From Candidatus Aminicenantes bacterium (GTDB taxonomy: Bacteria > Acidobacteriota > Aminicenantia > Aminicenantales > CAVYOD01), in contig OY969586.1 of NCBI GenBank assembly GCA_963701305.1, positions 1,865,509 through 1,929,508 of the forward strand: a stretch of 64,000 nucleotides of DNA, given 5' to 3'. Both the position numbers and the translations under genes were made by a program. The notes beneath the pieces are model-generated. The model was given only the letters and a program-made list of their open reading frames with translations. It made no database searches and was not told the origin of the DNA. Shown here piece by piece: positions 39,075-64,000 of the stretch. How positions within the stretch are numbered: the first letter of the stretch is position 1; the number at the start of each line of letters is the position of its first letter.

Positions 39075-39298
39075 GTGAGCAGTGAGCAGTGAGCAGTGAG
39101 CACTGAAATAATTAACACATCATCTTTATCGATTATAATGAAGATGCTTTTATTTATAATAGGTTCTTGCCAGTTAAACGGAGCGACGCAGACCAGATAA
39201 ACGTTTGTCCAGTGAGAACTGAGCAATAAAGTACTTCGCTGATTCGGCCTTTACTTGCTTTTTTTGGCTTCTCACTGCTCAGTGCTCACGGCTCACTG
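39075..39298. repeat. MITE-like element with AT-rich core bounded by inverted GTGAGCA heptad arms (copy F)
   Basis: Left arm 39075-39106 (gtgagcagtgagcagtgagcagtgagcactga). Right arm 39270-39298 (tctcactgctcagtgctcacggctcactg). Reverse complements match 19/20. The 163-bp core is about 30% GC in a 58% GC genome. The right arm supplies the last codons (…SEP*) of the upstream GT-C gene. The left arm ends 25 bp before the ftsK start codon. Confidence 0.75.
39112..39139 (+). promoter_or_regulatory. Sigma-70-like promoter motif inside element F core (TTAACA-N16-TATAAT); a second TATAAT at 39155-39160
   Basis: Perfect -10 hexamers in the AT-rich core. A GC hairpin plus T7 run (ggcctttacttgcTTTTTTTgg, 39247-39267) lies about 120 nt downstream on the same strand. 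Orientation and function not established. Confidence 0.3.
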
Positions 39299-41706
39299 TT
39301 TTCTCCGAGGGGCGGGAGCTCGCGAACCTCGAAACTCTCCGATCTTCCGACTCGGGCCGGCTTCCGGTTGTCATAATAGTCGTCGTAGCCGACCACGATC
39401 CTAAAGGGACGAGGCAGAGAAGGAATTTCCCAAGATCCCGTGACTGGCGCCCTGCGGTCGGCCTGCCAGGAGCCCACCTTGCCCTCAAAGAGAACGTGTT
39501 TTTGGACCTCACGGCCGTCCCGGTCTGTGATTTGCACAAACGGGTTGAGGACATACTCTTCGCCCCAGCGGAGCTCCCCCCCAAAGACCGCGCTGGAGAG
39601 TCTCCATGCCCCCCCCCTGTCGGCCAGGGAGACGACCTGGCAGTAGGCGTGGCCGCGATCGTTTGGAACGAGGATGTAATAATAAAAAAAGGTGAAGGAC
39701 TTTTGGCCGGGAACAAACTTGATAGTTCCGTAAGGCAAGGGGCTTTCCTTGGTCAGCTGACGCTCCGGCTTGGGAAGTCTGAGTCCTGGAATCTTAAGGT
39801 CATATTTATAGCCGATCGCAACCTTGGAATCATCCGGCCATGAAGGAAGGCGAGAGGAGCCCGAATACGAAGATTCGGACTCTTTCTCCAAACGGCCCGG
39901 ATAAACCTTTAACAGACTGATCTCTCTTCCCCGGATATCTGAGATCCGGACATAGGGATCTCTCACGTGTTCATTCAGCCCCGGGAGCGGCCTTCCGGAA
40001 ACGAAACTGGACAGGGCCCAGCTCCCGTCCTCGGCTTCTTTTAAGATAACACTCTGCGAATAGGAGCTGAAGTTACCGGGGAAAAGATGGGTGGGACAGT
40101 TCGTCCATTTGTAGACTCTGATCGTAGGATTGTGAAGGTCGGTCAGAGGCGGGTCATTTTTGTACTCGTCCCAGGCAGGCTCGAAGGTTTTGATCAAAAC
40201 GCCGCCGGCATCCAGCGAGCCGTAAAATTCCGCCTCTCTGGGAAACTCTTTCGGAAAACGGGTGAACCGCGCCGACATGGCGTCGCTTGTGACGACATAC
40301 TGGATTCTTTTCCAGGTGAGCCACTCCAGGTTGATCTGGCTCAAGGTGTGCCGATAAGAAAGTTGATAATCTTGCGGGGAAAGAGGAGGGCAGTAGGACT
40401 CCAGTGCGATTCTACTCCCCTTCGCGATGAACCTCTCAATCCAGGCTTTGGCCGTGATCCGGGTATCCGGTCGAGTCAGAGTGTAATCGACCATCACGAC
40501 CTTGTAAGCAGGGCCAAGGAGGAGGATGAAGACGACGGCCGCGGCGAGGATTTTTTCTCCCGCCGGAGTCACTTTTGCTTTCAAATGGAGCGACGACGAC
40601 AGCTTTTTGAGCCACGATAACATGGCGTCCAGAAAGAGAGAGGCCAAGAGAATCAGGAAGGGAGCGAGAGGGAGCATGTACCGGGTCGCTCTCGTCTTCC
40701 ACATGCCGATCAGGATAAAAAGCACGAGTGGGTAGGAGAGCAGAATGAGGTCTTTCTTTCTGTGCCGGACCAGGGCGTAGACGAGACCCCCTCCGACCAG
40801 GAACTGGGCGTAAGGCCCGACATTTTCTCTGAACCCGTACTTGAGGTAAAAAAGCCAGGCGGGATCCGCCGTCGAATCGCCGAAGTGGCCGAAGGAATAG
40901 AGATGTCTCGATTGCCAGCGAAAATCTCTCCAGAAGGTCGGAAAATCAAGCACGGCATATGGACAACCGGCCAGGAATCCGGCGGTGAATGAGGCCGCTG
41001 ATAGAAAGAGATCAGGACTCAGAATGATCTTTCGAAGCGGAAGCTTGTTTTCGAGGATACGAAAGATGTGGGCCAGGATAAGAGGAAGGAAGAGCATTTG
41101 GCCGCCGTACTTTGTGGCCGTGGCCAGTCCGGCTGCCAGTCCGGCCCAAACATAGTATTTTCGATCGCCTCGAGTGTAGATGAGCCAGCAAAAAAAGAAA
41201 GATAAAACCAGAAAGAAAACCATCGGTGAGTCGGGGTTCATGTAGTGCGAGATTTTGTTGTGCTCGGGCGAAAATATCAGGAACAGCCCGGCCAGGAATC
41301 CGAGGCGCCGATCGTACATTTTTTTCCCGATGAGATAGACGAGGAGGATTGTCCCCACGCTCAGAAAAAGGGTCAGGAGACGGCCGATGAGATAGAAAAC
41401 GGTTGGGTCATGGTTGAAATGGGCGACGAAGGTCGCGACAGAAGGAAAATTCCCGGCCATCTTGCCGCCGAGAAAATAGACGCCCCACAGCGCCGCGACC
41501 ATATAGGTATAAAGAGTAGGGACATGGAAAAAATGGGGGTCCAGGCCCTTGCTGAAATAGTCGATCGAGATCTGGGCGAAGCGCGCCTCGTCAACGTGAA
41601 GAATGAAGGGCAGGCCGAAATTGATGCCCCAGCCTCGAACGAGGACCGCGAGGACGACAAGGACAATGAGGACGGTTTTTTCTGATGGAAATTTCTCGGA
41701 ATTCAT
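39286..41706 (-). CDS. GT-C fold glycosyltransferase, ArnT/PMT-like (GT39/GT83) with large C-terminal periplasmic domain
   Basis: 806 aa. About 11 N-terminal TM helices with a first-loop acidic motif (HVDEARFAQ), then a roughly 350-aa soluble domain. Confidence 0.75.
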   Translation of the reverse strand: MNSEKFPSEKTVLIVLVVLAVLVRGWGINFGLPFILHVDEARFAQISIDYFSKGLDPHFFHVPTLYTYMVAALWGVYFLGGKMAGNFPSVATFVAHFNHDPTVFYLIGRLLTLFLSVGTILLVYLIGKKMYDRRLGFLAGLFLIFSPEHNKISHYMNPDSPMVFFLVLSFFFCWLIYTRGDRKYYVWAGLAAGLATATKYGGQMLFLPLILAHIFRILENKLPLRKIILSPDLFLSAASFTAGFLAGCPYAVLDFPTFWRDFRWQSRHLYSFGHFGDSTADPAWLFYLKYGFRENVGPYAQFLVGGGLVYALVRHRKKDLILLSYPLVLFILIGMWKTRATRYMLPLAPFLILLASLFLDAMLSWLKKLSSSLHLKAKVTPAGEKILAAAVVFILLLGPAYKVVMVDYTLTRPDTRITAKAWIERFIAKGSRIALESYCPPLSPQDYQLSYRHTLSQINLEWLTWKRIQYVVTSDAMSARFTRFPKEFPREAEFYGSLDAGGVLIKTFEPAWDEYKNDPPLTDLHNPTIRVYKWTNCPTHLFPGNFSSYSQSVILKEAEDGSWALSSFVSGRPLPGLNEHVRDPYVRISDIRGREISLLKVYPGRLEKESESSYSGSSRLPSWPDDSKVAIGYKYDLKIPGLRLPKPERQLTKESPLPYGTIKFVPGQKSFTFFYYYILVPNDRGHAYCQVVSLADRGGAWRLSSAVFGGELRWGEEYVLNPFVQITDRDGREVQKHVLFEGKVGSWQADRRAPVTGSWEIPSLPRPFRIVVGYDDYYDNRKPARVGRSESFEVRELPPLGENSEP

Positions 41707-41807: not shown

Positions 41808-43862
41808 TCATTGATCGCCGGCGGGCCTTGAGCAGGGCCCTTCCACCCCATCCGCTCTGATCACAGAGACGATGTAGAGATAATTTTCAGAAGGGATGAT
41901 GCTCTTGTCAAAGTACTGGAGCAACGGGGCAACGGTGGCAATGAGTCGATATTCCCCCTCCGCCTCCGACAGACTTTTCCGGTAAATGTTGTAGCCTTTG
42001 ATCAGAGTCTTGTCAGCGGTCTTGGGGTTATCGTGCCAGACGACAGAATTGATCAGCCCTTGGCTCTGGACAGAGATCGATATCTTAATCGGGTTGAAGG
42101 GGGGAGTGAGGGCAAAATCCCTCCTTTTGACCTCCAAATCTATCGGGGGAAAGGGGAATTTTTGAATCTCCTCAGACCATGTTAAAGCCATGAACTGGTA
42201 GCCCTTGACGCTGGGATGTTTCCGGTCGCTCGACAAAAGAGAAAGGCAGCCTCCATCCGCTTCAGGGTAATCGTTGAAGGCATTGAACTGCTCGACCAGC
42301 GGGACGCCCAATTCAGAAGCGACCTGACGAATCAGCTCATTGAGATAGTAGATTCGCTCCCGATAAAAATCATTATCCCAGCGCGTGTCCCTTCGGGGAA
42401 TGGTGGTCGCCAGGGCCGGAAAAACTCCGTAACCCAGACATCGGCTGGCTATCTCCTTGAGGTTGAAGGCTGAGGTATCCATCGAGATTTGATTGAAGAC
42501 GATGTCGTTGGTGCCCTCCATGATCAGAAAATATTGTGACGAGTGAGCGGTTAACACGGCGTTGATTCGGCCCAGGCCTTGCGAAGTGACCTCGCCGGGG
42601 AAACCTTCATTAAAACAGGTCGTGTCTCCAAATCTCTGAAGCAGGAGGTTCTGAAGCCGGGGGATGTAGCCGATCGATGGATCTTCTAGATCGGTATCGC
42701 CATTATATCCATAGGTGATACTGTCTCCAAAACAGGTATATTCATTATCAAGCAGTGAGGCGTTTGCGATAACCTGAGAAGAGGGCGGAGGTAGCGGGAT
42801 AAAGTCGGATTCACTCCCTAAATTGGAATCCAGGACGACCGCCCTGGCCCCGGCCTCTGATTGCCAAGCGATTCCAATTTCGTGTCCCCCGATGATCATT
42901 TTGGGAATGGCCGGGCCTGCGATTGACGTTATGATCCGCTTCTCCCAGCGCCCAGTATCGTTTCTGAGATGCCTCAGGTAGATCGAGCTGCCCTTGGGCC
43001 CGGAGTGAAGGCAGACCACGACCGGGACGTTTCCCGAAGCGAATCCGATCGTAGGGAAAGAGTCACTCCCGTTCTGGGTAACATCCGAGACCTTGCGGAC
43101 TTTTGACCATCCGCTTGGTTGCCGACGAGAGCTTTCGATTTCATAGCTCCGGCCATTGTAGGCGGACCAAACGACCCAAATGGTGCCTTCTTCGTCCAGG
43201 GCGGCATCCGGATTCAAGGCGGGAAACCGAGGATCGGTCGAGATTTTGCTGAGCGCTGACCATTGAGAATGGTTGTAAACTCTGTAAAAAATCTCCTCCT
43301 GCAAACGGCCTTTTCTCGTCCAGAAGACCCAGATGTTGTTATCGCGATCGGTGATCATTTTGGGCGTAAAGGTTGAGGGTGAAGGGGAGGAATCGAGCAG
43401 CCATGTCTTACCGGATTTGACCTCCTGGACATAGACACCGTGGTTAGACTTCCGGACATTATTCCAGGCCAAAAAAGGCTCGTTGCCTTGATCGAAACAG
43501 ACATCGGCGGAAAAATTAAAACCCTGAGGCTGTTTCAAGTCCGGAGCTCCGAGGATCCGGCCGTCTTCCAATCTTCCGAGGCGAATCTGGCTTTGATATT
43601 GGTCCCACTCTTCCCAAATCAACCAAAGGTTGCCGGATCTGTCCTTCTTGACCTGAGGAGAGCAAGCGTTTTTCTGAAGGGAGAGAACCTTGAGGAGAGG
43701 CTTGGCCGAAGATGTCGCCAGGATGTTCAGACCGATTCTTCCATCCTTCCCTTTATAAGCGAAGACCAAGGCTCCCCGTTTGTCGAATTCAACAGAGGCT
43801 CCGAGGTATGAAACAGCGATGAGCACGGCGAAGAGCGAGCTGAAAATAAACCTGCTTTTCAT
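41808..43862 (-). CDS. Secreted beta-propeller – SGNH/GDSL hydrolase – Fn3 multidomain protein
   Basis: Signal peptide (start at internal Met MKSRFIF, ATGA-overlapping the upstream GT-C gene). Repeated D-x-x-G-N-[IL]-W-[VL]-[IV]-W blades. GDSL block I (CFGDSITYGY) and block III (GTNDI). C-terminal Fn3-like domain (GYNIYRKS…). Confidence 0.7.
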   Translation of the reverse strand: MKSRFIFSSLFAVLIAVSYLGASVEFDKRGALVFAYKGKDGRIGLNILATSSAKPLLKVLSLQKNACSPQVKKDRSGNLWLIWEEWDQYQSQIRLGRLEDGRILGAPDLKQPQGFNFSADVCFDQGNEPFLAWNNVRKSNHGVYVQEVKSGKTWLLDSSPSPSTFTPKMITDRDNNIWVFWTRKGRLQEEIFYRVYNHSQWSALSKISTDPRFPALNPDAALDEEGTIWVVWSAYNGRSYEIESSRRQPSGWSKVRKVSDVTQNGSDSFPTIGFASGNVPVVVCLHSGPKGSSIYLRHLRNDTGRWEKRIITSIAGPAIPKMIIGGHEIGIAWQSEAGARAVVLDSNLGSESDFIPLPPPSSQVIANASLLDNEYTCFGDSITYGYNGDTDLEDPSIGYIPRLQNLLLQRFGDTTCFNEGFPGEVTSQGLGRINAVLTAHSSQYFLIMEGTNDIVFNQISMDTSAFNLKEIASRCLGYGVFPALATTIPRRDTRWDNDFYRERIYYLNELIRQVASELGVPLVEQFNAFNDYPEADGGCLSLLSSDRKHPSVKGYQFMALTWSEEIQKFPFPPIDLEVKRRDFALTPPFNPIKISISVQSQGLINSVVWHDNPKTADKTLIKGYNIYRKSLSEAEGEYRLIATVAPLLQYFDKSIIPSENYLYIVSVIRADGVEGPCSRPAGDQ

Positions 43863-45877
43863 GGGTCCGGCTCCATAGTATAGCATACTCCCCCCCGAGA
43901 AGCCTTGTCGGTAGAAGTATGCTCCATATAGTCAAAATGGGCTGGTCCCGTCAAAGGCACGATCTCCAAATAATACCAATCGCTCCTGGGAGTCTCGACG
44001 CCGAAAATTGCCCGGTGGCCTTCGATCCTGACTGCCTTCTCGGCAAGAGTCTTCCCATAAAGCCTAAACCGTATTTTAACTCTTCTCCCTTCTGAACGCC
44101 TAAAAAAAAGCCTGAGCTCCTCGATTCCCTTGTCGAAGTGCACAAAAGACGTGAGGTACTTTTGTCTTATCCGGACGCACGAGGATTCGGAGAGGTTATG
44201 AACAGGCTCAAGTGCTCCAGGCTCAAAAATTCCCCATTCAGCCTCATAAAACCGGCTCGGCGTGACGGTGTCGTCAAAAAGATAGGCCCGGCTAAATCCG
44301 TCCTTGCCCAGCCATCTCGTTCGAAAACTGTTTTGATGCAAAAAGTCCCTGATTCCCTTATTGATATGGCCTCGTTTCTCTATCGAGGTCGTCGAAACGA
44401 CCCAGACTCTTCCCCCTTCTCCGAGATTCCGGCTGATCATATCCTTCAATTCCTCGACCGTTCTCAGCCAGGGGACTCCGAGATAAAAATCGACCCATTG
44501 GCCATGAGTATACTCCCCCGCATCCCAGGTCCCGGGGCCGCCGCTGAAAAGCCAGGCGTCGACCTGCCCGCCGTAGATGTGCTCAAAGATCATGTTCATG
44601 GCGATCACCTTGTCGCCCTTTCGGAGATGTCCCTTCACATATTCAGCGCAGGAGCGATGGTCTTCCTGAAAATAGCGGCCCGAGGTATAGATAATGTCGG
44701 TTCGGATTTGATCGACATACTCCCGGCGGAAGATCGAGCTGAGTTTATTGATCCCGACGTCGCGCACAAATAAAAAAGGAATGAGAAGAGTCGGGACGAG
44801 AGCGAGCGGCCCGGCCCAGGACGGCTTAAAAACCTTTTGGAATAGCACCCTTGAAAAATCGTACAGGAAATAGAGGTTGATCAGTAAGAACTGGGCGCTG
44901 AAGGGAAAGAGATAGCGAGGCATGGGATGGGTTCTCATCAACCCGAGGCTCAGGGTGGTCAGGCCGAAATTGATCAAGAGGAAGAGGATGAATTTCTCCG
45001 AGACCGAGAACTCCCCCTTTTTTGTTTTTTTGATACAAAGAGTGATCAGAAAGAGGCACGTCCCCACCAGGAACAAAGGCCAGAAAAAAGGAAATGACCT
45101 CCTGAGCATTCCCAAATAGTTGAAAGAAAAATCTTTGAAGAAATAACTCAGGGTGTCCCGGACAGAGGTCACCGCCTGAGTGGAGTATGCTTGTCCCACT
45201 TTCCAGACCAAGACTTCCTGGAGCTGAACGAAAGCGATCAAGGGCAGCCAGAGCGCAAAACTGAGAATGTTCTTTTTGGAGAAAAATCTCTTCCCGGTTA
45301 GGACGAGCAAAGCCAAAAAACAAAAGATCAGGGAGATAGCCAGTTGGTGGGTGAGCAAGGCCGCGATCCAGACCAGGAAATAGAGATTTCTCCGGCTGAG
45401 AAAACGGTTCCTGAAAAACAGAATGACGCCCAAGAGAATGAGAAGCTCTGTCAGACCAAAGTAGAGGATGACTCGCGAGTATTCTGTCTGCCAGGAGGAA
45501 AAATAGAACAGGATTCCAAACGCGACCAGAATTTCTTTTTTGAGAATATCCTTGAGCAGGAGGTAGGCCAGGAGTGGTGTCATCACATGTACCAGAACGG
45601 AGAAAAAGCGCAGGGCCTCCGCAGAAAACCCGGAAAAGAGTGAAAAAAAAGCAAGGGCATAGGAAAAGAAGATGCTCTTAAAAAGAATATGGCCCGAAGG
45701 ATACAATGGATACCCGAGGGCCCTTATTTTTTGGGCGGCGAGATAATAAAATCCCTCATCCATCCACATAGGAAAATAGCCGAGCCGCAGCGATTTCAAA
45801 ATGAGGACGAAGAGGGCCAGAACGCAGAGCAGAAGAAGGTAAAAGTCGATTCTTTTCTTCAACGCAATCAGATTCAA
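43859..45877 (-). CDS. GT-C fold glycosyltransferase, ArnT/PMT-like paralog
   Basis: 672 aa. About 12 TM helices with a first-loop DE motif (FPMWMDEGFYY), C-terminal soluble domain. ATGA overlap with the upstream methyltransferase gene. Confidence 0.7.
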   Translation of the reverse strand: MNLIALKKRIDFYLLLLCVLALFVLILKSLRLGYFPMWMDEGFYYLAAQKIRALGYPLYPSGHILFKSIFFSYALAFFSLFSGFSAEALRFFSVLVHVMTPLLAYLLLKDILKKEILVAFGILFYFSSWQTEYSRVILYFGLTELLILLGVILFFRNRFLSRRNLYFLVWIAALLTHQLAISLIFCFLALLVLTGKRFFSKKNILSFALWLPLIAFVQLQEVLVWKVGQAYSTQAVTSVRDTLSYFFKDFSFNYLGMLRRSFPFFWPLFLVGTCLFLITLCIKKTKKGEFSVSEKFILFLLINFGLTTLSLGLMRTHPMPRYLFPFSAQFLLINLYFLYDFSRVLFQKVFKPSWAGPLALVPTLLIPFLFVRDVGINKLSSIFRREYVDQIRTDIIYTSGRYFQEDHRSCAEYVKGHLRKGDKVIAMNMIFEHIYGGQVDAWLFSGGPGTWDAGEYTHGQWVDFYLGVPWLRTVEELKDMISRNLGEGGRVWVVSTTSIEKRGHINKGIRDFLHQNSFRTRWLGKDGFSRAYLFDDTVTPSRFYEAEWGIFEPGALEPVHNLSESSCVRIRQKYLTSFVHFDKGIEELRLFFRRSEGRRVKIRFRLYGKTLAEKAVRIEGHRAIFGVETPRSDWYYLEIVPLTGPAHFDYMEHTSTDKASRGGVCYTMEPDP

Positions 45878-48957: not shown

Positions 48958-49055
48958 TATCGGATTTTCTCGGCTCCTGGCCCAGCGGACGGCCGCGACA
49001 TTTGTTCTAACTTTCTCTTTGGTCTGAAAAAAGAGAGCGGCATCATCGAGAACTC

Positions 49056-52399: not shown

Positions 52400-52421
52400 A
52401 AACTCCCCGGCCATAAAAACA

Positions 52422-55238: not shown

Positions 55239-55386
55239 TCTTGCCTTTACTCCTGAGTGCGTCTCTTGGCGCGGGTTCTCAAATAACCGCGGCGCGGTCT
55301 GTTCCGGCCGGCGCTGAGCGTCCACGACGATCCGTTTTTTTTCTTCCCGGTCGAAGCAACAGAGGGATTGGCTGGCTCCGGCAGAA

Positions 55387-56014: not shown

Positions 56015-57304
56015 CTAAAAGTTATATTTGAGTCCCAGAACAAACTGGATTTGAGAAAAATTGGCTTTCCGGGCGAGGTTTTTGATATTCGGGTTGAGAT
56101 AGATCACCCGGCCATCCAGGTCCAAGGACAATCTCGGGCTGATCGAGTATTCCAGGCTGGCTTGTGCTCCGAAAAGGAGGCTCGAGATGTTGTCCTCGGC
56201 ATATGTTTTGTCAGTGACGGTGACGTCGGAATTTCCGAAGGGGAAATTATCCGTGATGTTGAAGTCCTGAAGAGACAAATATCTTCCTGAGGCAAAACCC
56301 AGGGCAGGCCCCGCAGACACGCTAAACCTCTCCCCTCCCATGACCGGATAGAGACCGTAAAGATAAAAATAAAACAGCTTGTCTTGAAGGTTGTCTTCGC
56401 TCGATACCGTTCGCGGGTTGTTGGGGATAAAAGGATGAGGCAGGGACAGGTCAAGAGTCGCCTTATATTTGAACTGATAATACCCTAATCCGATCCCGGC
56501 TTTGATCTCTTTTCCCACCATCTTGAAATATCTGCCGAAGCCGAGCTCTGCAAGAAGAACCGATCTGAGCTTGTAGCTTTCTTTTATGGAACCAACCTCT
56601 CCATAAAGGTTGAGATCTTCCTGGAATTGAGTCGCCGACGCAAGGGGCAATACGATTCCACCTCCGACCTGGAGGAAATAGCCTTTTCCCTCTTGGCGCG
56701 TCTGCGGAACTTCCTCGACGGCTTTTTCGGGCTTCTTGTCGGCTGCGATTTTCTTTTCGGTCGTCTCCTTCAAAGTTTCCTTTGTCTTAGATTCAGCGAC
56801 TTCGGTCTTCACCACGGGAGCAACGTCTTCTTCTTTTTTGGGTACTTCGGCCTCGGCCGGGGCCTGGGCGGCTTCCTGCCAGAAAACAACCTTCAGGCCG
56901 TCCTCGACCTGAGAAATCCGATGAAGAGGACCTTTTTCGTCGAGGTCACAGACGACCCGGGCCAGCTTAGGCTGGAATTGTCCGACCCGAACGGTCAAGA
57001 CGCCGACGTCGTTGATCTGCAGGAGAGCTTCCGAAGATATTTTTTCAACTGAAGAAAGGTCGATCACCAGGCGGTTGGGAGAGCTGAGCTCGAATATTTC
57101 AAAACCGAATTTCCCCTGGATCTTGATATCAACCTCAAGCTGTCCTCCTACCTTGTTATAGCTGATTTCCTTTAGTTCCGAACTATGCTGAAAGTTGAAA
57201 TTGGCTCCAAATGTCTGGGTTTGTCCGAAGAAAAAGATGATGGCCAAGCCAGAGATGAGCCATTTTGACGTGTTTCTCAAGTCGACCTCCGTACTCAAAT
57301 ACAA
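56015..57304 (-). CDS. Outer-membrane protein with N-terminal AMIN domain and C-terminal beta-barrel
   Basis: Signal peptide. AMIN-like region (…NRLVIDLSSVE…VGVLTVRVGQF…). Lys/Glu/Pro-rich linker. C-terminal barrel ending …LGLKYNF. Confidence 0.6.
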   Translation of the reverse strand: MYLSTEVDLRNTSKWLISGLAIIFFFGQTQTFGANFNFQHSSELKEISYNKVGGQLEVDIKIQGKFGFEIFELSSPNRLVIDLSSVEKISSEALLQINDVGVLTVRVGQFQPKLARVVCDLDEKGPLHRISQVEDGLKVVFWQEAAQAPAEAEVPKKEEDVAPVVKTEVAESKTKETLKETTEKKIAADKKPEKAVEEVPQTRQEGKGYFLQVGGGIVLPLASATQFQEDLNLYGEVGSIKESYKLRSVLLAELGFGRYFKMVGKEIKAGIGLGYYQFKYKATLDLSLPHPFIPNNPRTVSSEDNLQDKLFYFYLYGLYPVMGGERFSVSAGPALGFASGRYLSLQDFNITDNFPFGNSDVTVTDKTYAEDNISSLLFGAQASLEYSISPRLSLDLDGRVIYLNPNIKNLARKANFSQIQFVLGLKYNF

Positions 57305-57449: not shown

Positions 57450-59501
57450 ATGATCAGGAAGAAAGGGATGATGCAGGGAATTTATCCAAAATATGCTTTC
57501 ATCTTCGTTTTCTTGGCGCTCTTCTTTGCCGCCTTTCAAAGCCAGAGTCTGGCAGCTGTCAACATTTCCAATTCATCGGGCCATGCCTCGTGGGCCCCAA
57601 GGATCGCATTGGACTCTCAGGGGAACATCTATGCCGTCTGGCTCGAAATTTATTCGGCGACCAGCGCAAGCGGCGATATCTTTTACACAAAATTCGATAG
57701 CCTGGATCAAAGCTGGAGCGCTCCCCTGAATTTGAGTCAATCGGGTGTGGCCGCGAGCTATTCTTACATGGCTTGTGATGTTGCCAGCGATAGCTCTGAT
57801 CGCATCTACGTCGTCTGGGCAGAAAGCAATGTGATCAAGCTGAGAATTCTTTCGGGGGGGGCTTGGGGCGGCTCGATCGTTGTCGCCAACTCATCGGGCT
57901 CGGATCATCCCAGGATTGGCGTGAGCTCGGACGGGGATCTCTTTATCATCTGGTGGACAACAAACGGGGTGGTCTATTCCAGGGCAAGAGTTGGGGGGAC
58001 ATGGGAAGGGACCAGGACTATAAGCAGAGCGGGAGCACGAGCCAAATTTCCTAACATTGCCGTAAGAGGAGGATCGGTTTTCGGGACTTGGGTCGAGAAG
58101 AGCGGGGACTACAAGGCGGTTTATGCCACGCGGAATTCCGGTCTCAATTCAGGTTGGAGTCAAAGCGAAGCGCTGCCGTCGTCCAAAGGATCGGACGAGC
58201 ATCCGGATGTCGTCATCGATACCAATGGGACGGCTCATTTCATCTGGACGCCCGACTTCGGCGGGACCAGAGCCGTCTGCTATACCTACCGCACGGGCAG
58301 CGGCTTCGGCCCTCTGCAATGGATTTCAGAGCAACAGATGCTGCACTACCCGAATCTCGTGGTCCAGGGCACGAGCCTCTATGCGTGCTGGCAGGTCGGA
58401 GCGTACGGCAATGGCTTGCGCGTCAATTATAATATCAGGCAGGGAGGGACCTGGACTGGGGAAACCCCAGTCTCTCAATCGGCTGGATCGACATTCTCTG
58501 ACATCGAGATCAGTCAGGGTGGGGAGAGCGTTTATTTTGTTTGGGAATCCCATGGAGAGATTTATTTCGCGTCGACGGGACAGACTCCGCCGCCACCTCC
58601 GTCAGGAAATCAGCCCCCTATTGCCGATTTTGGGTTCTCGCCGACAACCGGTCAATATCCTCTCGAGGTCACTTTTGACGGCTCTCTTTCCTATGATCCT
58701 GATGGGCGGATCGATTCCTATGCCTGGATTTTTGGAGACGGCGGCACCGGCACAGGGAAAGCCGTCAAACACACTTACAAGAAAAACGGCACATTCAGCA
58801 TCAAATTGACAGTCGCTGATGACAAGGGAATGACAGGAACTTATGCTCAGAAAATTACCGTTTTGAAGCCGAACACTCCTCCCGTCGCCGGGTTTGCCTT
58901 CTCTCCAACAACCGGGATCTGTCCCCTGGCCGTGAATTTTGATGCCTCGGCTTCGCGGGATCCTGATGGCAGCATCGTCTCTTTTGCCTGGAATTTTGGC
59001 GACGCCGGAACTGGTTCAGGCAAGCTCACCAATCACACTTATTCTAAACCCGGAACATTCGACATCCAGCTCACGGTGACCGACAACAGGGGAGGCACAG
59101 GAACGAAGACGAAGACGATCACCGTCCTGGCCCTTTATGGTCCGCTGGACGTGCGCTGGGAGACCGTTATCGATGAAAGCCTTTTTCAGTCTCGCCATGT
59201 CACCGAGGTCGTTTGGGCCAAGAATCCCAAAAATGACGCCATCGGCGCCCAGATCACCGGGTACAGGGTCTATCGCAAAGGAACTCAGGATCCCATCAGT
59301 TCGTACGCGCCGGTCAAACTCGTGGATGCCAATACGTTTTCTTACATGGATTTCGATGTCGAGGGGAAGGGCCTCTATTCTTACGTTGTGACGACGGTGG
59401 ACAGCCAGGGTCATGAGAGTCTGATTGGCAACACGGCCGGGAGGATCCTGGATTCGGTCAAGAGCCAGGAATCAGCCAGAAATCGGATCAAAAAATATTA
59501 G
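57450..59501 (+). CDS. Secreted beta-propeller protein with two PKD domains and an Fn3-like domain (paralog 3)
   Basis: Signal peptide. Same blade motif (DSQGNIYAVWLE, SDGDLFIIWWT, DTNGTAHFIWTP). Two canonical PKD modules (…FDGSLSYDPDGRIDSYAWIFGDG…). C-terminal GYRVYRKG Fn3-like domain. Confidence 0.75.
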   Translation: MIRKKGMMQGIYPKYAFIFVFLALFFAAFQSQSLAAVNISNSSGHASWAPRIALDSQGNIYAVWLEIYSATSASGDIFYTKFDSLDQSWSAPLNLSQSGVAASYSYMACDVASDSSDRIYVVWAESNVIKLRILSGGAWGGSIVVANSSGSDHPRIGVSSDGDLFIIWWTTNGVVYSRARVGGTWEGTRTISRAGARAKFPNIAVRGGSVFGTWVEKSGDYKAVYATRNSGLNSGWSQSEALPSSKGSDEHPDVVIDTNGTAHFIWTPDFGGTRAVCYTYRTGSGFGPLQWISEQQMLHYPNLVVQGTSLYACWQVGAYGNGLRVNYNIRQGGTWTGETPVSQSAGSTFSDIEISQGGESVYFVWESHGEIYFASTGQTPPPPPSGNQPPIADFGFSPTTGQYPLEVTFDGSLSYDPDGRIDSYAWIFGDGGTGTGKAVKHTYKKNGTFSIKLTVADDKGMTGTYAQKITVLKPNTPPVAGFAFSPTTGICPLAVNFDASASRDPDGSIVSFAWNFGDAGTGSGKLTNHTYSKPGTFDIQLTVTDNRGGTGTKTKTITVLALYGPLDVRWETVIDESLFQSRHVTEVVWAKNPKNDAIGAQITGYRVYRKGTQDPISSYAPVKLVDANTFSYMDFDVEGKGLYSYVVTTVDSQGHESLIGNTAGRILDSVKSQESARNRIKKY

Positions 59502-59576: not shown

Positions 59577-60230
59577 TCATTCCTTGGCGGCGAAAAAAAG
59601 GACGTGGGGATACCAATAGCCTTTGTCCAAGGAGATTGGTCTAACTCTAAATCCTACTCCCTCGAGCAGCCGGAGATATTCAGCCCTGCTCCGGAAACAA
59701 AATCTGTTCCCGTGCGTGAATCCGATGATCTTGACGGCCATGGTTTCCTGGAAGAGATTCCAGAGATATTTCCAGCGGGGCCGGGTATCCATATCTTTGA
59801 GTAGGAGCACTCCTCCCTTAGTCAAAGCCTGGTAACATTTGCGGAGCATGGCCTCCTGCCGGGAGGAGGGGATGAGATACAGAACATCGATCATGGCGAT
59901 GACGTCGCTCTTCGGATAATCCATATCCGTGATGTTAAAAACCCGGAATTCCAGACCGGGAATGTCTTTATGGACATCGCGGGCGGTCTTGATCTTTTTG
60001 GGGTCCAAGTCAAAGCCGAGAATCTCACGGGCGGGAGATCCCAGTTTGAGCAGGTTCGAAAAAACGCCGTTGCCGCAGCCTAGATCGATGACTTTTCCGG
60101 CAGGAGGAAAATAGGTCTCCATCGCCAGAAACGGGCAAATCTTGAGCTTGATCCGCAAATAGAGTTTTGTGGCCAGGCCACAGTTGTGATAGAGACGGAA
60201 GACTTCTTCTCGATTCAGCATCCGCCTCAC
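59577..60230 (-). CDS. Class I SAM-dependent methyltransferase
   Basis: Motif I VIDLGCGNG, post-I D, about 217 aa. ATGA-coupled to upstream asnB. Confidence 0.75.
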   Translation of the reverse strand: MRRMLNREEVFRLYHNCGLATKLYLRIKLKICPFLAMETYFPPAGKVIDLGCGNGVFSNLLKLGSPAREILGFDLDPKKIKTARDVHKDIPGLEFRVFNITDMDYPKSDVIAMIDVLYLIPSSRQEAMLRKCYQALTKGGVLLLKDMDTRPRWKYLWNLFQETMAVKIIGFTHGNRFCFRSRAEYLRLLEGVGFRVRPISLDKGYWYPHVLFFAAKE

Positions 60231-62137
60231 CTCAGATAGTGATCATACCAGAACTGGAAGATGATGAGCGGCCATAGCAACTGGCGATGATTGTGATTTC
60301 CTTCGAAGTGCTCTTTCATGATCTTCCCAACGTAGGCGGCATTAAAAAAACGGTGCTTTTTCAGGTTCTCAGGGGAGAGGACGGAGGCCACGAAATCCTT
60401 GAGGTCATCCTTGATCCAGACGCCCAGGGGGATGTCGAAACCTATCTTCTTCCTGCGGATGATTTCCCGTGGCAACCGGCGGCTCATTGCTTTCTTGAGG
60501 ATGTATTTGGAGGTCATTCCCTTGAGCTTGAGGGAGCTTGGGATCGTGGCGGCGAACTCGACGAAGGTGTAATCCAGAAAGGGGACGCGGATCTCGAGGG
60601 AATTGGCCATGCTCATCCGGTCCACTTTGACCAGGAGGTCGTCCTGGAGATAGAGCTTGAGGTCCAGGTAGGCCAGCCTGTCCAGGGTTTCGCTGGCTCG
60701 GCAGTTTCGAAGATGGAAGGCCACCGGGGAGTAGGCATCTTGGCCAAGCGCCTCCCTGAACTCCTCGGAGAAGAGGTCCTTTTTGGCGGCGGGAGTGAAA
60801 GCGCCCCACCAAACAAAATTGGCGATCTCGGGCGGGTATTCGACACCGGCGATGAATTTTTTCGCCTTGAACTCGAAGGAGAGCCTCTTCTTAGTGGCCG
60901 GCAGGAGCGAGACCAGGTTCTTGACGATTCCGGTCCTGATCAACCGAGGGACCCTGCGGTAGAGACGGGCCACCTTGTAAGCTTTATAGGTATCGTAGCC
61001 CGCGAAGAGCTCATCGCCGCCGTCCCCGGCCAGGGCCACGGTGACATATCGACGTGCCAGTTTGGAAATGATATAAGTTGGGATGATCGAGGCATCAGCC
61101 AGGGGCTCGTCCACATAGTTCATCAAGAGGGGAACCAGGTCTTTCACCAGGCTCGACTCGACGACGAACTCCCGGTGTTCGGTGCCGAAGCGCTGCGCGA
61201 TCGTCTTGGCGTAATCCAGCTCATCGAAGCTCTTTTCTTTGAAACCGATCGAGAAGGTCTTGATGGGAGACGATGCGCCCTCGCTCATCAACGACGTGAT
61301 CGAACTCGAATCGATCCCGCCGCTCAAGAAAACGCCGAGGGGGACATCACTGATGAGTCTCATCCGCACAGACTCCTTGAGCCGGCGTTCAATCTCCTCC
61401 GCAAATTCTTCTTCGCTCTTCGGGGGAGAAGGCTTGGGCTCAAAGCGAACATCCCAGTAAGGACGCAGAGTGACTCGGCCGTTCTCAAGGACGAGCATTT
61501 CACCTGGCTGGAGTTTCTGAATGCCTCTGAAGATCGTGCGCGGAGCCGGGACATATTCGAAGGTAAAATATTGCGAGAGGGCCTCCAAGTCGATCTCTCT
61601 CGGGCAGTCTGACTGAAGCAGCGACTTAATCTCCGAGGAAAAAAGGAGCTGGCTCTTGTACCTTAGGTAGTGAAGCGGCTTCACGCCCAACCGGTCTCGG
61701 ACAAGGATCAGTTTTTTTTTGGCCTTGTCCCAGAGGGCGATGGCGAACATCCCGTTGAGGTCCTGGACGAACGACTCTCCTTTTTCTTCGTAAAGGTGGA
61801 CGATGACTTCCGTATCGGTTTGCGTCCGGAAGGTGTGGCCCTTGTCCACGAGGCGCTTCTTCAATTCCGGGAAATTGTAGATCTCGCCGTTGTAGATCGT
61901 CCAGATCGATCCGTCCTCGTTGGACAGCGGCTGATGGCCGGTGACCAGGTCGATGATGCTCAGCCTCCTCATCCCCAGGGCGATCCGGTCGTCTCGATAA
62001 TAGCCCTCGTCGTCAGGGCCGCGATGGACCATCGCCCGGCACATCGCCCGGGTCAGGATTTCCGCGTCCGGGCCCAGTTCGCCAAAACCGCAGATTCCGC
62101 AGATGCCACACATCTCAGTTGGGCTCATTGTATCCAT
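60227..62137 (-). CDS. asnB: Asparagine synthetase (glutamine-hydrolysing) family amidotransferase
   Basis: N-terminal Ntn Cys (MCGICGF), SGGIDSS PP-loop. 636 aa. Confidence 0.88.
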   Translation of the reverse strand: MDTMSPTEMCGICGICGFGELGPDAEILTRAMCRAMVHRGPDDEGYYRDDRIALGMRRLSIIDLVTGHQPLSNEDGSIWTIYNGEIYNFPELKKRLVDKGHTFRTQTDTEVIVHLYEEKGESFVQDLNGMFAIALWDKAKKKLILVRDRLGVKPLHYLRYKSQLLFSSEIKSLLQSDCPREIDLEALSQYFTFEYVPAPRTIFRGIQKLQPGEMLVLENGRVTLRPYWDVRFEPKPSPPKSEEEFAEEIERRLKESVRMRLISDVPLGVFLSGGIDSSSITSLMSEGASSPIKTFSIGFKEKSFDELDYAKTIAQRFGTEHREFVVESSLVKDLVPLLMNYVDEPLADASIIPTYIISKLARRYVTVALAGDGGDELFAGYDTYKAYKVARLYRRVPRLIRTGIVKNLVSLLPATKKRLSFEFKAKKFIAGVEYPPEIANFVWWGAFTPAAKKDLFSEEFREALGQDAYSPVAFHLRNCRASETLDRLAYLDLKLYLQDDLLVKVDRMSMANSLEIRVPFLDYTFVEFAATIPSSLKLKGMTSKYILKKAMSRRLPREIIRRKKIGFDIPLGVWIKDDLKDFVASVLSPENLKKHRFFNAAYVGKIMKEHFEGNHNHRQLLWPLIIFQFWYDHYLR

Positions 62138-62213
62138 TTTCGATCAAAAACACTACCTTCGCCTGTCTTATCCCTCTCTTTATCTGATGTAAACGCGATA
62201 AGTAACTTGACAT

Positions 62214-62350
62214 GTTCAAGATTGCGCCCACGGCCACCCTCTGGCCCCCGGACCCCGAGGAACCAGTCCCGTCGGTTCCCCCGTCGGACATGCCGACGGG
62301 CCCCCCTCCGCTACGGGGTCTCAAGGGTGGCCGTGGGCGCAATCTTGAAC
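62214..62350. repeat. 137-bp element with perfect 27-bp terminal inverted repeats and a nested GC hairpin
   Basis: gttcaagattgcgcccacggccaccct (62214-62240) is exactly reverse-complemented at 62324-62350. The 83-bp C-rich spacer contains cccgtcgg-acatg-ccgacggg. Lies in the asnB/ydjC divergent region. Confidence 0.8.
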
Positions 62351-62400
62351 AGAAATGTCGCGTTTGTATTAGTCATCTCGTCATCCCGTCAAGAAAGAGA

Positions 62401-62476
62401 AAGCAGTAAGCTGTAAGCACTGAGCAGTGAAAGCCCAAATCAAATATTTTCTTACCGTTCACTCCTTACCCCTGAC
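62401..62476. repeat. Heptad-unit inverted-repeat element (copy G)
   Basis: aagcagtaagctgtaagcactgagcagtga … ttaccgttcactccttacccctgac. Shares the cttaccgttYactccttacc module with copy C. Confidence 0.7.
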
Positions 62477-62573
62477 TATCTTCTCGACGAGATGGACGTC
62501 TTTTTGTTGTTTTTTAGGTGAAAACTGGCATAAAATAAGCCGGGTTGGAGATAAAAAAAGCCCGAGATTCCGA

Positions 62574-63443
62574 TTGAGATCAGAAAAAAGAATCATCGTC
62601 AACGCTGATGACTTTGGGCTGAGCCGGGGCATCAATGAAGGGATCATCCTGGCCCACAGGAAGGGCATCCTGACGAGCGCCACCCTCATGGCCAACATGC
62701 CGGCTTTCGACCAGGCCGTGGATCTGGCCAGGCAAAATCCCGGGCTGGGAGTGGGGATTCACCTGAACATCCTCAGAGGCGCCCCCGTTTCTTCACCCGG
62801 CCAGGTGACCAGCCTGGTCGATCCGCAAGGCCTATTTTGGGGCCGCGTTTCCATCCTTATCAGGAAATTGATCTCCAGGAGTATCCAAGCCGAGGATGTC
62901 GAGAGGGAATGGCGGGCCCAGCTGGAGAAAATCTTGGCTGCCGGGATCAGGCCGACTCATTTTGACAGCGAGAAACATCTCCACACCTGGCCTCTCCTCT
63001 TCCGCACCGTCCTCAAGCTGGCCAAGGAATATTCAATCCCGCGTGTCAGATTCATCCGGGAATATTGCTGGTCCGGGTCTCCGGCCCAGATACTGAAATC
63101 TCTCGGGATCTCGCTCGCCTGCAGTTTTATGAAGAAGAAAATTGCCCGGAATGGTATAATGAGGCCCGATCATTTCTCGGGAATCTGCCGGAGCGGCGGG
63201 ATGACAGTGCAGCGGTGGGAGAAAATTCTGGCCAATCTTGCTGATGGTACCACCGAGGTCATGGTTCACCCGGGCTTCAAAACGGCGGAACTGGATGCCC
63301 TCCAGGGACTGACCGGCTCCTATTATATTCATAAATTCAGAGAGAAGGAGTTGGAGGCCCTGGTGGATGAAAGGCTGAGATCTCTGGTCCGGGCTTCCGG
63401 GATTCAACTCATTAATTTTAGCGGGCTGGACAAAGATGGCTAA
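62574..63443 (+). CDS. YdjC/ChbG/HpnK-family carbohydrate deacetylase
   Basis: N-terminal IIVNADDFG motif and conserved His/Asp residues. The ORF-track start (GTG at 62427) reads through repeat copy G; a TTG at 62574 is the more plausible start. Start uncertain. Confidence 0.75.
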   Translation: MRSEKRIIVNADDFGLSRGINEGIILAHRKGILTSATLMANMPAFDQAVDLARQNPGLGVGIHLNILRGAPVSSPGQVTSLVDPQGLFWGRVSILIRKLISRSIQAEDVEREWRAQLEKILAAGIRPTHFDSEKHLHTWPLLFRTVLKLAKEYSIPRVRFIREYCWSGSPAQILKSLGISLACSFMKKKIARNGIMRPDHFSGICRSGGMTVQRWEKILANLADGTTEVMVHPGFKTAELDALQGLTGSYYIHKFREKELEALVDERLRSLVRASGIQLINFSGLDKDG

Positions 63444-64000
63444 GACGAAAGACCTTCCCCAAGTCTCGATTGTCGTCCCATTTTTCAACGAGCAGGAGAA
63501 CATCGGGGAACTGTATGGTTCCCTGAAGCGGGTCCTGGACGGGTTGAAGATCAGCTACGAACTGATCTTCATCGACGACGGGAGCAAGGATCAGACCTAC
63601 TCAACTCTCGTCGGATTGTTTAATAGAGATGAAAACGTGCGGATCATCAAGCTAAGAAAGAATTTTGGCCAGACAGCCGCCCTCCAGGCGGGGTTCGATG
63701 ATGCCCGGGGGGAGATCATCATCTCCATGGATGGTGACCTTCAGCACGACCCCAGTGATATCCCGGCCATGCTGGAGAAGATGAAGGACGGTTATGATAT
63801 TGTCAGCGGTTGGCGCAAGAGGCGAGTGGATAACTTTTTTCTCCGCAAGCTCCCTTCTCTCCTGGCGAACCGCATGATGAGAAAACTCTCTGGAGTCCAG
63901 ATCCATGATTTCGGAACGACCTTCAAAGCTTATAAAAAAGATGTGATCAAGAGCGTACGTCTCTACGGTGAGCTCCACCGTTTCATCCCCGCTCTCATCA
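63436..64000 (+). CDS. GT2 polyprenyl-phosphate glycosyltransferase (ArnC/GtrB-like), 5' portion; runs off window end
   Basis: MAKTKDLPQVSIVVPFFNE…IFIDDGSKD…SMDGDLQHDP: GT-A DxD and ArnC/GtrB-type N-terminus. No stop before the window end. Confidence 0.8.
   Translation, partial: MAKTKDLPQVSIVVPFFNEQENIGELYGSLKRVLDGLKISYELIFIDDGSKDQTYSTLVGLFNRDENVRIIKLRKNFGQTAALQAGFDDARGEIIISMDGDLQHDPSDIPAMLEKMKDGYDIVSGWRKRRVDNFFLRKLPSLLANRMMRKLSGVQIHDFGTTFKAYKKDVIKSVRLYGELHRFIPALI

Follow-up and report, generated by a model that had tools for sequence, protein, structure and literature searches.

The 64,000-nucleotide window analysed here (contig OY969586.1 of assembly GCA_963701305.1) comes from a Candidatus Aminicenantes bacterium. 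Its last ~25 kb (positions 39286-64000 of the window) encode two glycosyltransferases of the C type (GT-C), two family 2 glycosyltransferases (GT2) and two radical S-adenosylmethionine (SAM) enzymes, together with further sugar-modifying enzymes and surface proteins. On balance, this region is probably the Aminicenantes form of a conserved envelope-glycosylation supercluster, in which polyprenyl-phosphate sugar donors feed periplasmic GT-C enzymes and a pathway of the Lgm/NaxD type is extended by radical SAM, methyl and amide tailoring. Aminicenantes (OP8) are an abundant, uncultured lineage of anoxic sediments, and to our knowledge nothing has been established experimentally about their cell envelope. 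Open reading frames (ORFs) were mapped over 36-64 kb of the window and scanned against Pfam and NCBIfam, which recovered, at the same coordinates, every gene class proposed by an initial annotation made without database searches. These include the GT9 enzyme, the two radical SAM enzymes, two methyltransferases, AsnB, YdjC and an embedded rsmA. Both polyprenyl-phosphate-type GT2 enzymes, one Dpm1-like and the other ArnC-like, were matched in Pfam and NCBIfam, while the two GT-C enzymes were recognized by Pfam (GTC1) and by homologues and a predicted structure (GTC2). The gene identities, folds, linkage and distribution among phyla described below are shown by these analyses.

The annotation had listed these enzymes as separate parts; they can be tied into one pathway because in most relatives the gene for the larger radical SAM enzyme (hereafter the hub) lies directly upstream of those for YdjC and the ArnC-like GT2. 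The window proteins were mapped by tblastn onto 80 genome loci (numbered with the prefix L), each spanning ±10 kb around a relative of the hub, and adjacency was counted in the 50 loci of Aminicenantes type, with the radical SAM gene as the anchor. Several frequent neighbour clusters were discarded as spurious antisense ORFs of GC-rich genomes. YdjC is immediately followed by the ArnC-like GT2 in 20 loci, and the hub gene immediately precedes YdjC in 18. The ArnC-like GT2 is followed by GTC2, the hub by GTC1 and GTC1 by ftsK in 11 loci each, and AsnB by MT217, a small methyltransferase, in 14. The genes for surface proteins are linked to the same hub: the GDSL protein precedes the AMIN-barrel protein in 15 loci, the latter precedes the small barrel OMP198 in 17 and OMP198 precedes the hub in ten. 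GT9 stands before the Dpm1-like GT2 in nine loci, and the latter before rsmA in six.

About 17 families persist together in this way through at least three different gene orders. In the first (type A), the GDSL and AMIN-barrel genes, optionally GTC2, OMP198, the hub, optionally the Trm112-fused methyltransferase, GTC1 and ftsK follow one another. In the second (type B), AsnB and MT217 are divergent from a series formed by the hub, YdjC, the ArnC-like GT2, GTC2 and a hexapeptide acyltransferase. The third (type C), which is that of the window, runs from the hub through GT9, the Dpm1-like GT2 and rsmA to the radical SAM-SPASM gene. The complete chromosomes L006, L008 and L032 each have one radical SAM locus, as found by a pattern-based scan, and each shows another type of arrangement. 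Since each sampled complete chromosome has a single locus and the neighbourhood types differ, the radical SAM gene links all of the modules. A close relative, L081 (87-92% DNA identity), for which gene calls were made independently, has a gene order identical to that of the window; it is a collinear 28-kb contig of the 90%-cluster member P0176. The genes are thus strongly co-conserved across Aminicenantes and partly beyond, so that the lack of co-conservation named in the initial annotation as grounds for refutation does not apply, and the region, called an island there, is an ancestral, rearranging supercluster, usually abutting ftsK, rather than a mobile island. A mobile island was rejected on two counts: the GC content of the region (0.49-0.55) differs little from that of its flanks, and the cluster adjoins ftsK in many relatives.

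The nearest relatives of the hub enzyme are AprD4, a sugar dehydratase that works without cobalamin, and HpnJ. Its CX3CX2C motif (C204, C208 and C211) is invariant in an alignment of 30 homologues, and all of its named relatives are from Candidatus Aminicenantes. The protein also has a database entry of 100% identity, located on a 4.07-Mb contig. An AlphaFold (AF2) model with a mean predicted local distance difference test score (pLDDT) of 91.5 shares both fold and domain architecture with AprD4, as assessed with Foldseek (TM 0.80/0.81, 481 columns, E 3.4e-28), whereas the next matches other than AprD4 (TsrM, MgmA, OxsB, TokK and CysS) gave TM scores of 0.61-0.72 relative to the query (TMq) and 0.41-0.67 relative to the target (TMt). 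Searched against the PDB, the family profile retrieved AprD4 with an E value of 2.7e-44 and the next match with 7e-19. In NCBIfam the best match is HpnJ, at 158.7 bits over the full length, which does not reach the cut-off of 577.6 (TIGR03471); PhpK, BchE and AprD4 follow, the last of these (equivalog NF033070) at 116.2 bits, below a cut-off of 500. The initial annotation had labelled the enzyme as B12-binding. The B12-binding model (PF02310) scores 20.4 bits with the window protein against a cut-off of 32.1, and many homologues carry a precomputed PF02310 match; the AlphaFold model resembles TsrM, TokK and CysS (TMq 0.65-0.69) less than it does cobalamin-free AprD4.

These relationships bear on the probable substrate. 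AprD4 is a radical SAM 1,2-diol dehydratase that removes the 3'-hydroxyl of the glucosamine ring in paromamine (PMC5461906), and in the hopanoid pathway HpnI adds N-acetylglucosamine (GlcNAc), the YdjC protein HpnK deacetylates it and HpnJ has been proposed to contract the glucosamine ring of bacteriohopanetetrol (BHT)-glucosamine (PMC13459092). Both of these nearest characterized relatives thus act on a de-N-acetylated glucosamine glycoside. A gene of the short-chain dehydrogenase/reductase epimerase/dehydratase family is present in only four related loci. A protein with DUF362 and 4Fe-4S ferredoxin domains is encoded directly before the radical SAM gene in L001 (8762-9973), L002, L006, L007, L009 and L010, and its gene is absent from the window; it might supply electrons to the radical SAM enzyme or otherwise act as its partner.

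GTC1 exceeds the Pfam cut-off for PMT (PF02366; 57.3 bits, 2.2e-15, cut-off 22.7) and scores 53.8 bits (3.3e-14) with PMT_2; since the two scores are nearly equal, GT39 and GT83 cannot be separated. Translation and hydropathy place a VDEARF (DE) motif after the first transmembrane helix and an internally duplicated periplasmic domain of ~400 aa at the C-terminus. The Pfam scan of GTC1 found no MIR domain, a feature of eukaryotic PMTs, and a sequence search against the PDB returned nothing. GTC2 has no Pfam match of its own, and neither its sequence nor its family profile found a match in the PDB. Its homologues at 35-41% identity bear PF13231 and are annotated as GT39, and the MDEGFY (DE) motif after its first transmembrane helix contains an invariant Glu40 and a nearly invariant Asp39. 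The top Foldseek matches of an AlphaFold (AF2) model built from 33 sequences (pLDDT 88.8) are all GT-C enzymes, namely AglB, EmbC, ArnT (TMt 0.52-0.53), ALG9, PglB/STT3, AftA and Pmt4. As modelled, GTC2 is a GT-C enzyme, and from its homologues, DE motif and Foldseek matches the claim of two GT-C transferases is therefore correct. Among the later Foldseek matches, CBM6 modules align with the C-terminal β-sandwich of GTC2, which suggests a glycan acceptor. With both GT-C and both GT2 enzymes real, the earlier proposal of periplasmic glycosylation fed by lipid-linked monosaccharides gains support.

The core of the cluster extends beyond the phylum. An ArnC/Dpm1-like GT2, an MT217-like methyltransferase, a radical SAM enzyme and YdjC occur together in Omnitrophota (L047 and L056), Planctomycetota (L057 and L067) and Acidobacteriota (L063 and L071). 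In five of these loci (L047, L056, L057, L063 and L067) they are accompanied by a polytopic protein of 600-1030 aa, while L071 ends at the radical SAM gene. In all but L067 the polytopic protein has a DDEA(W/Y)H or WDEAW motif after the first transmembrane helix, and two of the polytopic proteins score above the Pfam cut-off for PMT_2. In all three of these phyla, MT217 and the radical SAM enzyme are encoded next to each other. The omnitrophotan locus L059 contains a co-directional array of a radical SAM-SPASM enzyme, an ArnC-like GT2 (53% identity), AsnB (43%), a radical SAM enzyme, a polytopic protein, MT217 and a second polytopic protein with a DE motif. The radical SAM gene is immediately preceded by a GT2 gene in Chloroflexota, Nitrospirota, Sumerlaeota, a metagenome-assembled genome (MAG) of Firmicutes and DPANN archaea as well, and a large polytopic protein is often encoded nearby. 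Because its families are linked in other phyla, the core appears to be a cross-phylum cassette and not a local accident. Four loci from outside Aminicenantes (L045, L050, L067 and L074) hold four or five radical SAM paralogues side by side, together with GT2 and polytopic proteins; such arrays suggest cassettes for multi-step radical tailoring.

From these analogies we infer the substrates, step order, radical chemistry and acceptor of the following scheme. The ArnC/GtrB-type GT2 would load an N-acetylhexosamine (HexNAc) onto polyprenyl phosphate at the cytoplasmic face, and YdjC would then free the 2-amino group, as do NaxD, LgmC and HpnK. The hub would carry out radical chemistry on the ring of the amino sugar, most likely dehydration or deoxygenation, with C-methylation and ring contraction as alternatives. 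Dehydration or deoxygenation is favoured because AprD4 is the closest structure and because ring contraction would leave the downstream GT-C without a usable glycosyl donor. MT217 and AsnB might add methyl and amide groups, and the BtrN/BlsE-like radical SAM-SPASM enzyme might contribute an anaerobic oxidation or decarboxylation. After flipping, the PMT_2-type GT-C enzymes with carbohydrate-binding C-terminal domains, that is GTC2 and a paralogue expected past the end of the window, would move the sugar to a periplasmic acceptor. This acceptor is most likely to be lipopolysaccharide (LPS) or another envelope glycan; LPS is the first candidate since GT9 and Lpt genes are present. LptB and LptC, encoded in the same window, score above their cut-offs, which indicates that the organism exports LPS. 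A second pair of donor synthase and transferase, formed by the Dpm1-like GT2 and the PMT-like GTC1, would add a hexose, while the cysteine-rich GT9 would act on the cytoplasmic side. The outer-membrane barrels, the TolB-like lipoprotein and three secreted paralogues may represent either the decorated structure or factors for its assembly and remodelling.

Precedents for the combination of a GT2, a YdjC protein and a GT-C are the Lgm system of Bordetella (LgmA/B/C; PMC4993483) and FlmK with undecaprenyl phosphate-galactosamine (Und-P-GalN) in Francisella (PMC4402001). With LgmA/B/C and FlmF2/NaxD/FlmK the region shares an ArnC-like GT2, a YdjC deacetylase and a GT-C of the ArnT/PMT_2 type, and the logic common to both systems is that undecaprenyl phosphate receives a HexNAc, which is then deacetylated and flipped before its transfer in the periplasm. 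In the region, on the other hand, conservation extends beyond this triad to AsnB, a radical SAM-SPASM enzyme, one or two SAM methyltransferases and a radical SAM enzyme resembling AprD4 and HpnJ; there are also several GT-C paralogues, and the GT-C bears a CBM6-like domain. The triad could nevertheless be all that matters: the GT2, YdjC and the GT-C would place plain glucosamine (GlcN) or galactosamine (GalN) on lipid A phosphates in an ordinary cationic modification, the other genes being unrelated neighbours. The three genes are present and, in related loci, tightly linked, the known systems have exactly these three components and LPS export genes are at hand. This explanation is unlikely, however, in view of the radical SAM gene that directly precedes YdjC in those 18 loci, stays with GT2, YdjC, MT217 and GT-C in other phyla and shares a co-directional array with AsnB and the radical SAM-SPASM gene in L059; in addition, ArnT lacks the CBM6-like domain of the GT-C.

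The presence of a Dpm1-like GT2 beside a GTC1 that exceeds the PMT cut-off and has a DE motif raises the question of protein O-glycosylation, in which polyprenyl-phosphate mannose or another hexose would be used by GTC1, and perhaps by GTC2, to glycosylate the co-encoded secreted and outer-membrane proteins and so build a glycoprotein surface layer. The co-directional recurrence of the GDSL, AMIN-barrel, OMP198, hub and GTC1 genes would be in keeping with such a function. Yet the near equality of the PMT and PMT_2 scores, the missing MIR domain, secreted proteins in which no obvious Ser/Thr-rich linkers were seen by eye and a CBM-like domain in GTC2 that points to a glycan acceptor make it an improbable account of the whole; it may hold for the GTC1 branch only, where it is compatible with the lipid-carrier pathway proposed above. 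A synthase of the Dpm1/PpgS type is also paired with a PMT-type GT-C in the actinobacterial Ppm1/Pmt system and in that of PpgS and Rv3779, which attaches galactosamine to arabinogalactan, as in the region; in contrast to these systems, the host is a diderm with LPS, and the PpgS model reaches only 46.9-50.5 bits. GT-C enzymes with carbohydrate-binding C-terminal domains, such as Rv3779 and Emb, modify wall polysaccharide.

The HpnI/HpnK/HpnJ pathway, which converts BHT-GlcNAc into BHT-GlcN and then into the BHT cyclitol ether, relies, like the region, on a GT2, a YdjC deacetylase and a B12-like radical SAM enzyme, and the implied order of the three is shared. By analogy with it or with calditol synthase (Cds), a radical SAM precedent on a lipid-linked hexose, the region might instead specify a membrane-lipid head group, with ring contraction to an (amino)cyclitol ether and the GT-C serving a separate process. 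The best NCBIfam matches of the hub and of YdjC are indeed HpnJ and HpnK, the two genes are adjacent in relatives, and contraction of the ring of a lipid-linked hexose by a radical SAM enzyme has precedents in HpnJ and Cds. Against this, both proteins stay under their equivalog cut-offs (158.7 versus 577.6 bits for HpnJ and 202.5 versus 232.6 for HpnK), the GT2 belongs along its whole sequence to the polyprenyl-phosphate (ArnC/GtrB/PgfS) type and none of its matches is to HpnI, and neither a squalene-hopene cyclase, an HpnH-like gene nor any other hopanoid gene appears among the conserved neighbours (±10 kb). Moreover, the GT2 gene has a GT-C gene after it in 11 loci of Aminicenantes and also in other phyla, so that the head-group explanation is quite improbable. 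With AprD4, which acts together with AprD3 in apramycin biosynthesis and is the closest solved structure, the hub shares an almost equal size (453-454 resolved residues versus 457 aa). The ring on which AprD4 acts is the 2-amino-2-deoxyglucose of paromamine, a compound that arises by GlcNAc transfer and subsequent deacetylation. The two proteins are only 22-23% identical, and the hub has no AprD3-like reductase gene adjacent to it and is set in an envelope context instead of an aminoglycoside cluster.

The Arn pathway (ArnBCADTEF) has in common with the region an ArnC-like GT2, an ArnT-like GT-C and modification of the sugar on its carrier before periplasmic transfer. It differs in that no match to ArnA, ArnB, ArnD or ArnE/F was found among the ORFs scanned at 39-64 kb with Pfam and NCBIfam, and in that the deacylase of the region is a YdjC protein and not a CE4 enzyme. 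A canonical Arn, Gtr or Hpn assignment was rejected because of sub-cut-off equivalog scores and missing partner genes. The initial annotation was accordingly right to set the locus apart from textbook Arn, Gtr and O-antigen loci, since every Arn and Hpn equivalog score is below its cut-off. No description of this gene combination was found in the literature, and the region is a previously undescribed variant of the class in which a lipid-carrier amino sugar is transferred by a periplasmic GT-C (Lgm/NaxD and Arn). That it is no functional unit at all, but a chance pile-up of independent envelope and housekeeping genes beside ftsK, as the central rsmA, the division of the genes among six or more transcription units, which lie on both strands, and the variable order in relatives might imply, is very hard to reconcile with ~17 families that re-associate in several permutations around the radical SAM gene, with core families linked in unrelated phyla and with an rsmA that keeps even its position.

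Several points weigh against the proposed pathway. The substrates are assigned by analogy, because all equivalog scores lie below the cut-offs, and an HpnJ-like ring contraction would leave a product unfit as a glycosyl donor for the GT-C. Neither an AprD3-like reductase nor a flippase was identified in the window, and AsnB is without an obvious substrate, since no uronic-acid-forming dehydrogenase was found. In the window the cassette is split, the radical SAM gene lying 12 kb from YdjC and the ArnC-like GT2, and GTC2 18 kb away. Finally, the synteny sample covers ±10 kb of one anchor gene, and its ORF calls are crude longest ORFs, some of them spurious antisense frames.

If the pathway is as proposed, the locus offers a concrete and testable route of envelope decoration for Aminicenantes, and, to judge from the occurrence of this cassette in Omnitrophota, Planctomycetota and further phyla, the chemistry seems to be widespread. 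It would also link three sets of enzymes that have been studied separately, namely Lgm/NaxD lipid A modification, the HpnI/K/J head-group enzymes and AprD4, in a common scheme of GlcNAc transfer, deacetylation and radical SAM chemistry on the glucosamine ring. More tentatively, and with some doubt, the AprD4/HpnJ-like radical SAM family could be a widespread and so far uncharacterized means of tailoring a hexosamine on its polyprenyl-phosphate carrier by radical chemistry (deoxygenation, branching or carbocycle formation) before a GT-C installs it on LPS or a surface glycan, in anaerobes of the Aminicenantes, Omnitrophota, Planctomycetota and Acidobacteriota and probably also of the Chloroflexota, Nitrospirota and DPANN archaea. 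Were this true, it would be the first radical SAM tailoring at the level of the lipid carrier, and it would predict new deoxy or branched amino sugars in uncultured phyla. A radical step on a polyprenyl-phosphate sugar would represent a new point of tailoring, an anaerobic counterpart to the nucleotide-sugar tailoring of aerobes.

Features of the region, with positions numbered from the first base of the window
Feature	Coordinates	Strand	Evidence and remarks
GTC1, 806-aa GT-C of PMT/PMT_2 (GT39/GT83-like) type	39286..41706	-	Pfam PMT and PMT_2
Secreted GDSL + propeller protein	41808..43886	-	Lipase_GDSL_2 1.6e-22; probable start 43862 (684 aa, as in the L081 gene call)
GTC2, diverged GT-C of the PMT_2 lineage, 672-aa ORF	43859..45877	-	Probable start 45862 (667 aa)
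Class I SAM methyltransferase with N-terminal Trm112-like zinc ribbon and hydrophobic C-terminal part	45874..46848	-	Methyltransf_11 9.3e-18, Trm112p 9.6e-6
Secreted 586-aa protein with propeller-like region and two Fn3-like repeats	47197..48957	+	Signal peptide in translation; Pfam sub-threshold only
Hub radical SAM enzyme, 457 aa, with N-terminal B12-like Rossmann domain	49056..50429	+	Pfam Radical_SAM 7.6e-27
GT9, heptosyltransferase-like	50525..51640	+	Probable start 50546 (364 aa); Pfam Glyco_transf_9 (PF01075) 77.2 bits, 1.6e-21
Dpm1/AglJ/PpgS-like GT2, 250 aa, without transmembrane helices	51647..52399	+	Pfam Glycos_transf_2 2.1e-26
RsmA/KsgA 16S rRNA dimethyltransferase (housekeeping)	52368..53243	+	NCBIfam ksgA 241.7 bits, above cut-off 171
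Radical SAM-SPASM enzyme	53288..54265	+	Pfam SPASM 5e-15, Radical_SAM 9.1e-15
TolB-like PD40 β-propeller lipoprotein	54285..55409	-	Probable gene 54285-55238 (317 aa, lipobox LGC; L081 gene call); PD40 2.1e-28
OMP198, small 198-aa predicted outer-membrane β-barrel with signal peptide	55387..55983	-	Translation; faint OmpW match only
AMIN domain + charged linker + C-terminal β-barrel	56015..57304	-	Pfam AMIN 3.5e-8, translation
Secreted 683-aa PKD protein with propeller-like region, two PKD domains and Fn3-like C-terminus	57450..59501	+	PKD_4 4.1e-43
MT217, small class I SAM methyltransferase	59577..60230	-	Probable start 60221 (214 aa); Methyltransf_31 8.3e-15
AsnB-type glutamine-dependent amidotransferase	60227..62137	-	Asn_synthase 5.2e-106; probable start 62113, N-terminus MCGICG
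GC-rich imperfect palindrome of ~140 nt	62213..62351	.	Divergent AsnB/YdjC intergenic region; 38-nt arms, 89% complementary
YdjC-family carbohydrate deacetylase, NaxD/LgmC/HpnK-like	62427..63443	+	Probable TTG start 62574 (289 aa)
ArnC/GtrB/PgfS-type polyprenyl-phosphate GT2	63436..64000	+	Pfam Glycos_transf_2 5.3e-35; cut by the window end after 188 aa

The YdjC protein matches its Pfam family (PF04794) with 241.8 bits (1.6e-71); in NCBIfam, its HpnK score (TIGR03473) is near to but under the cut-off, and ChbG reaches 174.5 bits. The end of its gene overlaps the start of the ArnC-like GT2 gene by 8 nt. For the latter enzyme, the full-length orthologue in L001 (3580-4578, 92% identical) scores 206.6 bits (4.5e-61) with ArnC and 193.5 bits (4.9e-57) with PgfS, the former below the cut-off of 529 bits of the ArnC equivalog NF007986. 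In L001 this GT2 is followed (687-3575) by a 168-aa ORF, a 602-aa paralogue of GTC2 and a hexapeptide acyltransferase. The corresponding position of the GTC2 paralogue falls beyond base 64000, outside the window, and the L001 order predicts the genes just past that base. A membrane-anchored hexapeptide-repeat acyltransferase likewise follows the GT-C in 12 loci, among them L001, L017, L019-L024 and L039.

The Dpm1-like GT2, whose NCBIfam matches comprise AglJ (2.4e-20), PgfS, PpgS, ArnC and a Dol-P-hexose transferase, is by sequence a candidate polyprenyl-phosphate hexose synthase. The rsmA gene that follows it had been regarded as a housekeeping interruption; it does lie inside the region, but its position is conserved within the operon, the order Dpm1-like GT2, rsmA and radical SAM-SPASM gene recurring in 5-6 loci from several Aminicenantes lineages. 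This placement recalls the lptD-surA-pdxA-ksgA operon of E. coli, which also combines envelope genes with ksgA. The radical SAM-SPASM enzyme, whose cysteines are conserved, matches BtrN (1.6e-12, with its auxiliary-cluster domain) and the cytosylglucuronate decarboxylase BlsE (5.7e-5) in the PDB; since these nearest relatives are sugar or cyclitol enzymes, carbohydrate rather than peptide substrates are indicated. The Trm112-fused methyltransferase, which also matches the NCBIfam model Trm112_arch (6e-11), occurs together with either the radical SAM gene or GTC1 in 12 loci. The nearest solved structures to MT217 are phosphoethanolamine N-methyltransferases, a weak match (2.2e-8). AsnB is best matched in NCBIfam by the XrtA/PEP-CTERM exopolysaccharide (EPS)-associated amidotransferase (641.7 bits, below the cut-off of 816.9).

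The GT9 enzyme scores below the NCBIfam cut-offs of both WaaC (90.3 versus 185.3) and WaaF (81 versus 134.6), and its PDB matches are 3TOV, WaaC and WaaF. The window protein was compared with its orthologues in L001, L002, L008, L017, L020, L021 and L024: an N-terminal Cys4 motif (C13, C22, C28 and C31) is present in all eight sequences and a C-terminal one (C341, C344, C349 and C354) in seven of them. These additional motifs, which the solved WaaC and WaaF lack, are probably metal-binding. A role as a TibC-like protein heptosyltransferase was considered and found to be unsupported, as the PDB matches are LPS heptosyltransferases and 3TOV only.

About 8 kb, or one third of the region, is taken up by genes for outer-membrane and secreted proteins, which the initial annotation had not mentioned and which are conserved along with the enzymes. 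The secreted GDSL, 586-aa and 683-aa proteins are paralogues, the last two being 21.6% identical over 371 aa (E 2e-20). The GDSL protein is composed of a signal peptide, a propeller-like N-terminus, an SGNH/GDSL esterase domain and an Fn3-like C-terminus; an SGNH domain fits O-acyl handling on glycans. For the fold of the three paralogues Pfam offered only sub-threshold matches to GH43, BNR_4 and SBBP, and the N-terminal domain of the PKD protein had no sequence match in the PDB. No other family is linked to the radical SAM gene as often as that of OMP198 (27 of the 50 loci), and the AMIN-barrel protein, by its sequence a probable peptidoglycan-tethered outer-membrane protein, is co-conserved in 25 of the 50. 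The PD40 lipoprotein matches the NCBIfam TolB propeller model (1.9e-42, below the cut-off). It is one of two TolB-like PD40 proteins in the window, the other being the canonical tolB product (23448-24743) of the Tol-Pal operon; the lipoprotein paralogue is without the TolB N-terminal domain.

Outside the region, the window carries housekeeping and envelope genes of a diderm, including leuS, holA, ribBA, ribD, ftsY, recJ, lptC/lptA-like genes, lptB, rpoN, hpf, ptsN, rapZ, the Tol-Pal genes, uvrA and ftsK. Arrays of the heptamer (GTGAGCA)n are found at 39074-39107, 39263-39305 and 62399-62435, so that the earlier description of the region as flanked by repeats is only partly right. A role as island borders was rejected, because the same arrays are present throughout the window (18415-18451, 26704/26755 and 36397/36683) and are thus a general intergenic feature. 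They form inverted pairs of (GTGAGCA)4-5 and (TGCTCAC)4-5 in intergenic sequence, at 18415-18451, 26704-26793, 36397-36715, 39074-39305 and 62399-62435. The pair at 26704-26793 forms a tight hairpin, and two pairs bracket 155-250 nt of non-coding sequence, one on each side of ftsK. The arrays are a genome-specific intergenic repeat, REP-like or terminator-like. The palindrome between the divergent AsnB and YdjC genes folds with a z-score of -8.07; it has no second copy in the window, is absent from the 80 related loci and has no Rfam match, and could be a regulatory or REP-like element. An Rfam search of the window revealed no RNA family.

Long antisense or overlapping ORFs run against the radical SAM, AsnB and GT9 genes (48807-50534 on the minus strand, 60287-61612 and 61670-62416 on the plus strand and 50831-51829 on the minus strand). 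Three were scanned against Pfam without a family match, and none was matched in the independent gene calls of L081; they are most likely to be spurious. The block formed by MT217, AsnB, YdjC and the ArnC-like GT2 (59604-64000) is 90.6% identical in DNA sequence to positions 4014-8470 of L001 (MAG contig CAVYOD010000023.1), where it is inverted relative to the radical SAM gene, while the remaining genes shared by L001 and the window are only 68-72% identical. This block reflects either a recent lateral exchange between Aminicenantes lineages or a chimeric MAG contig.

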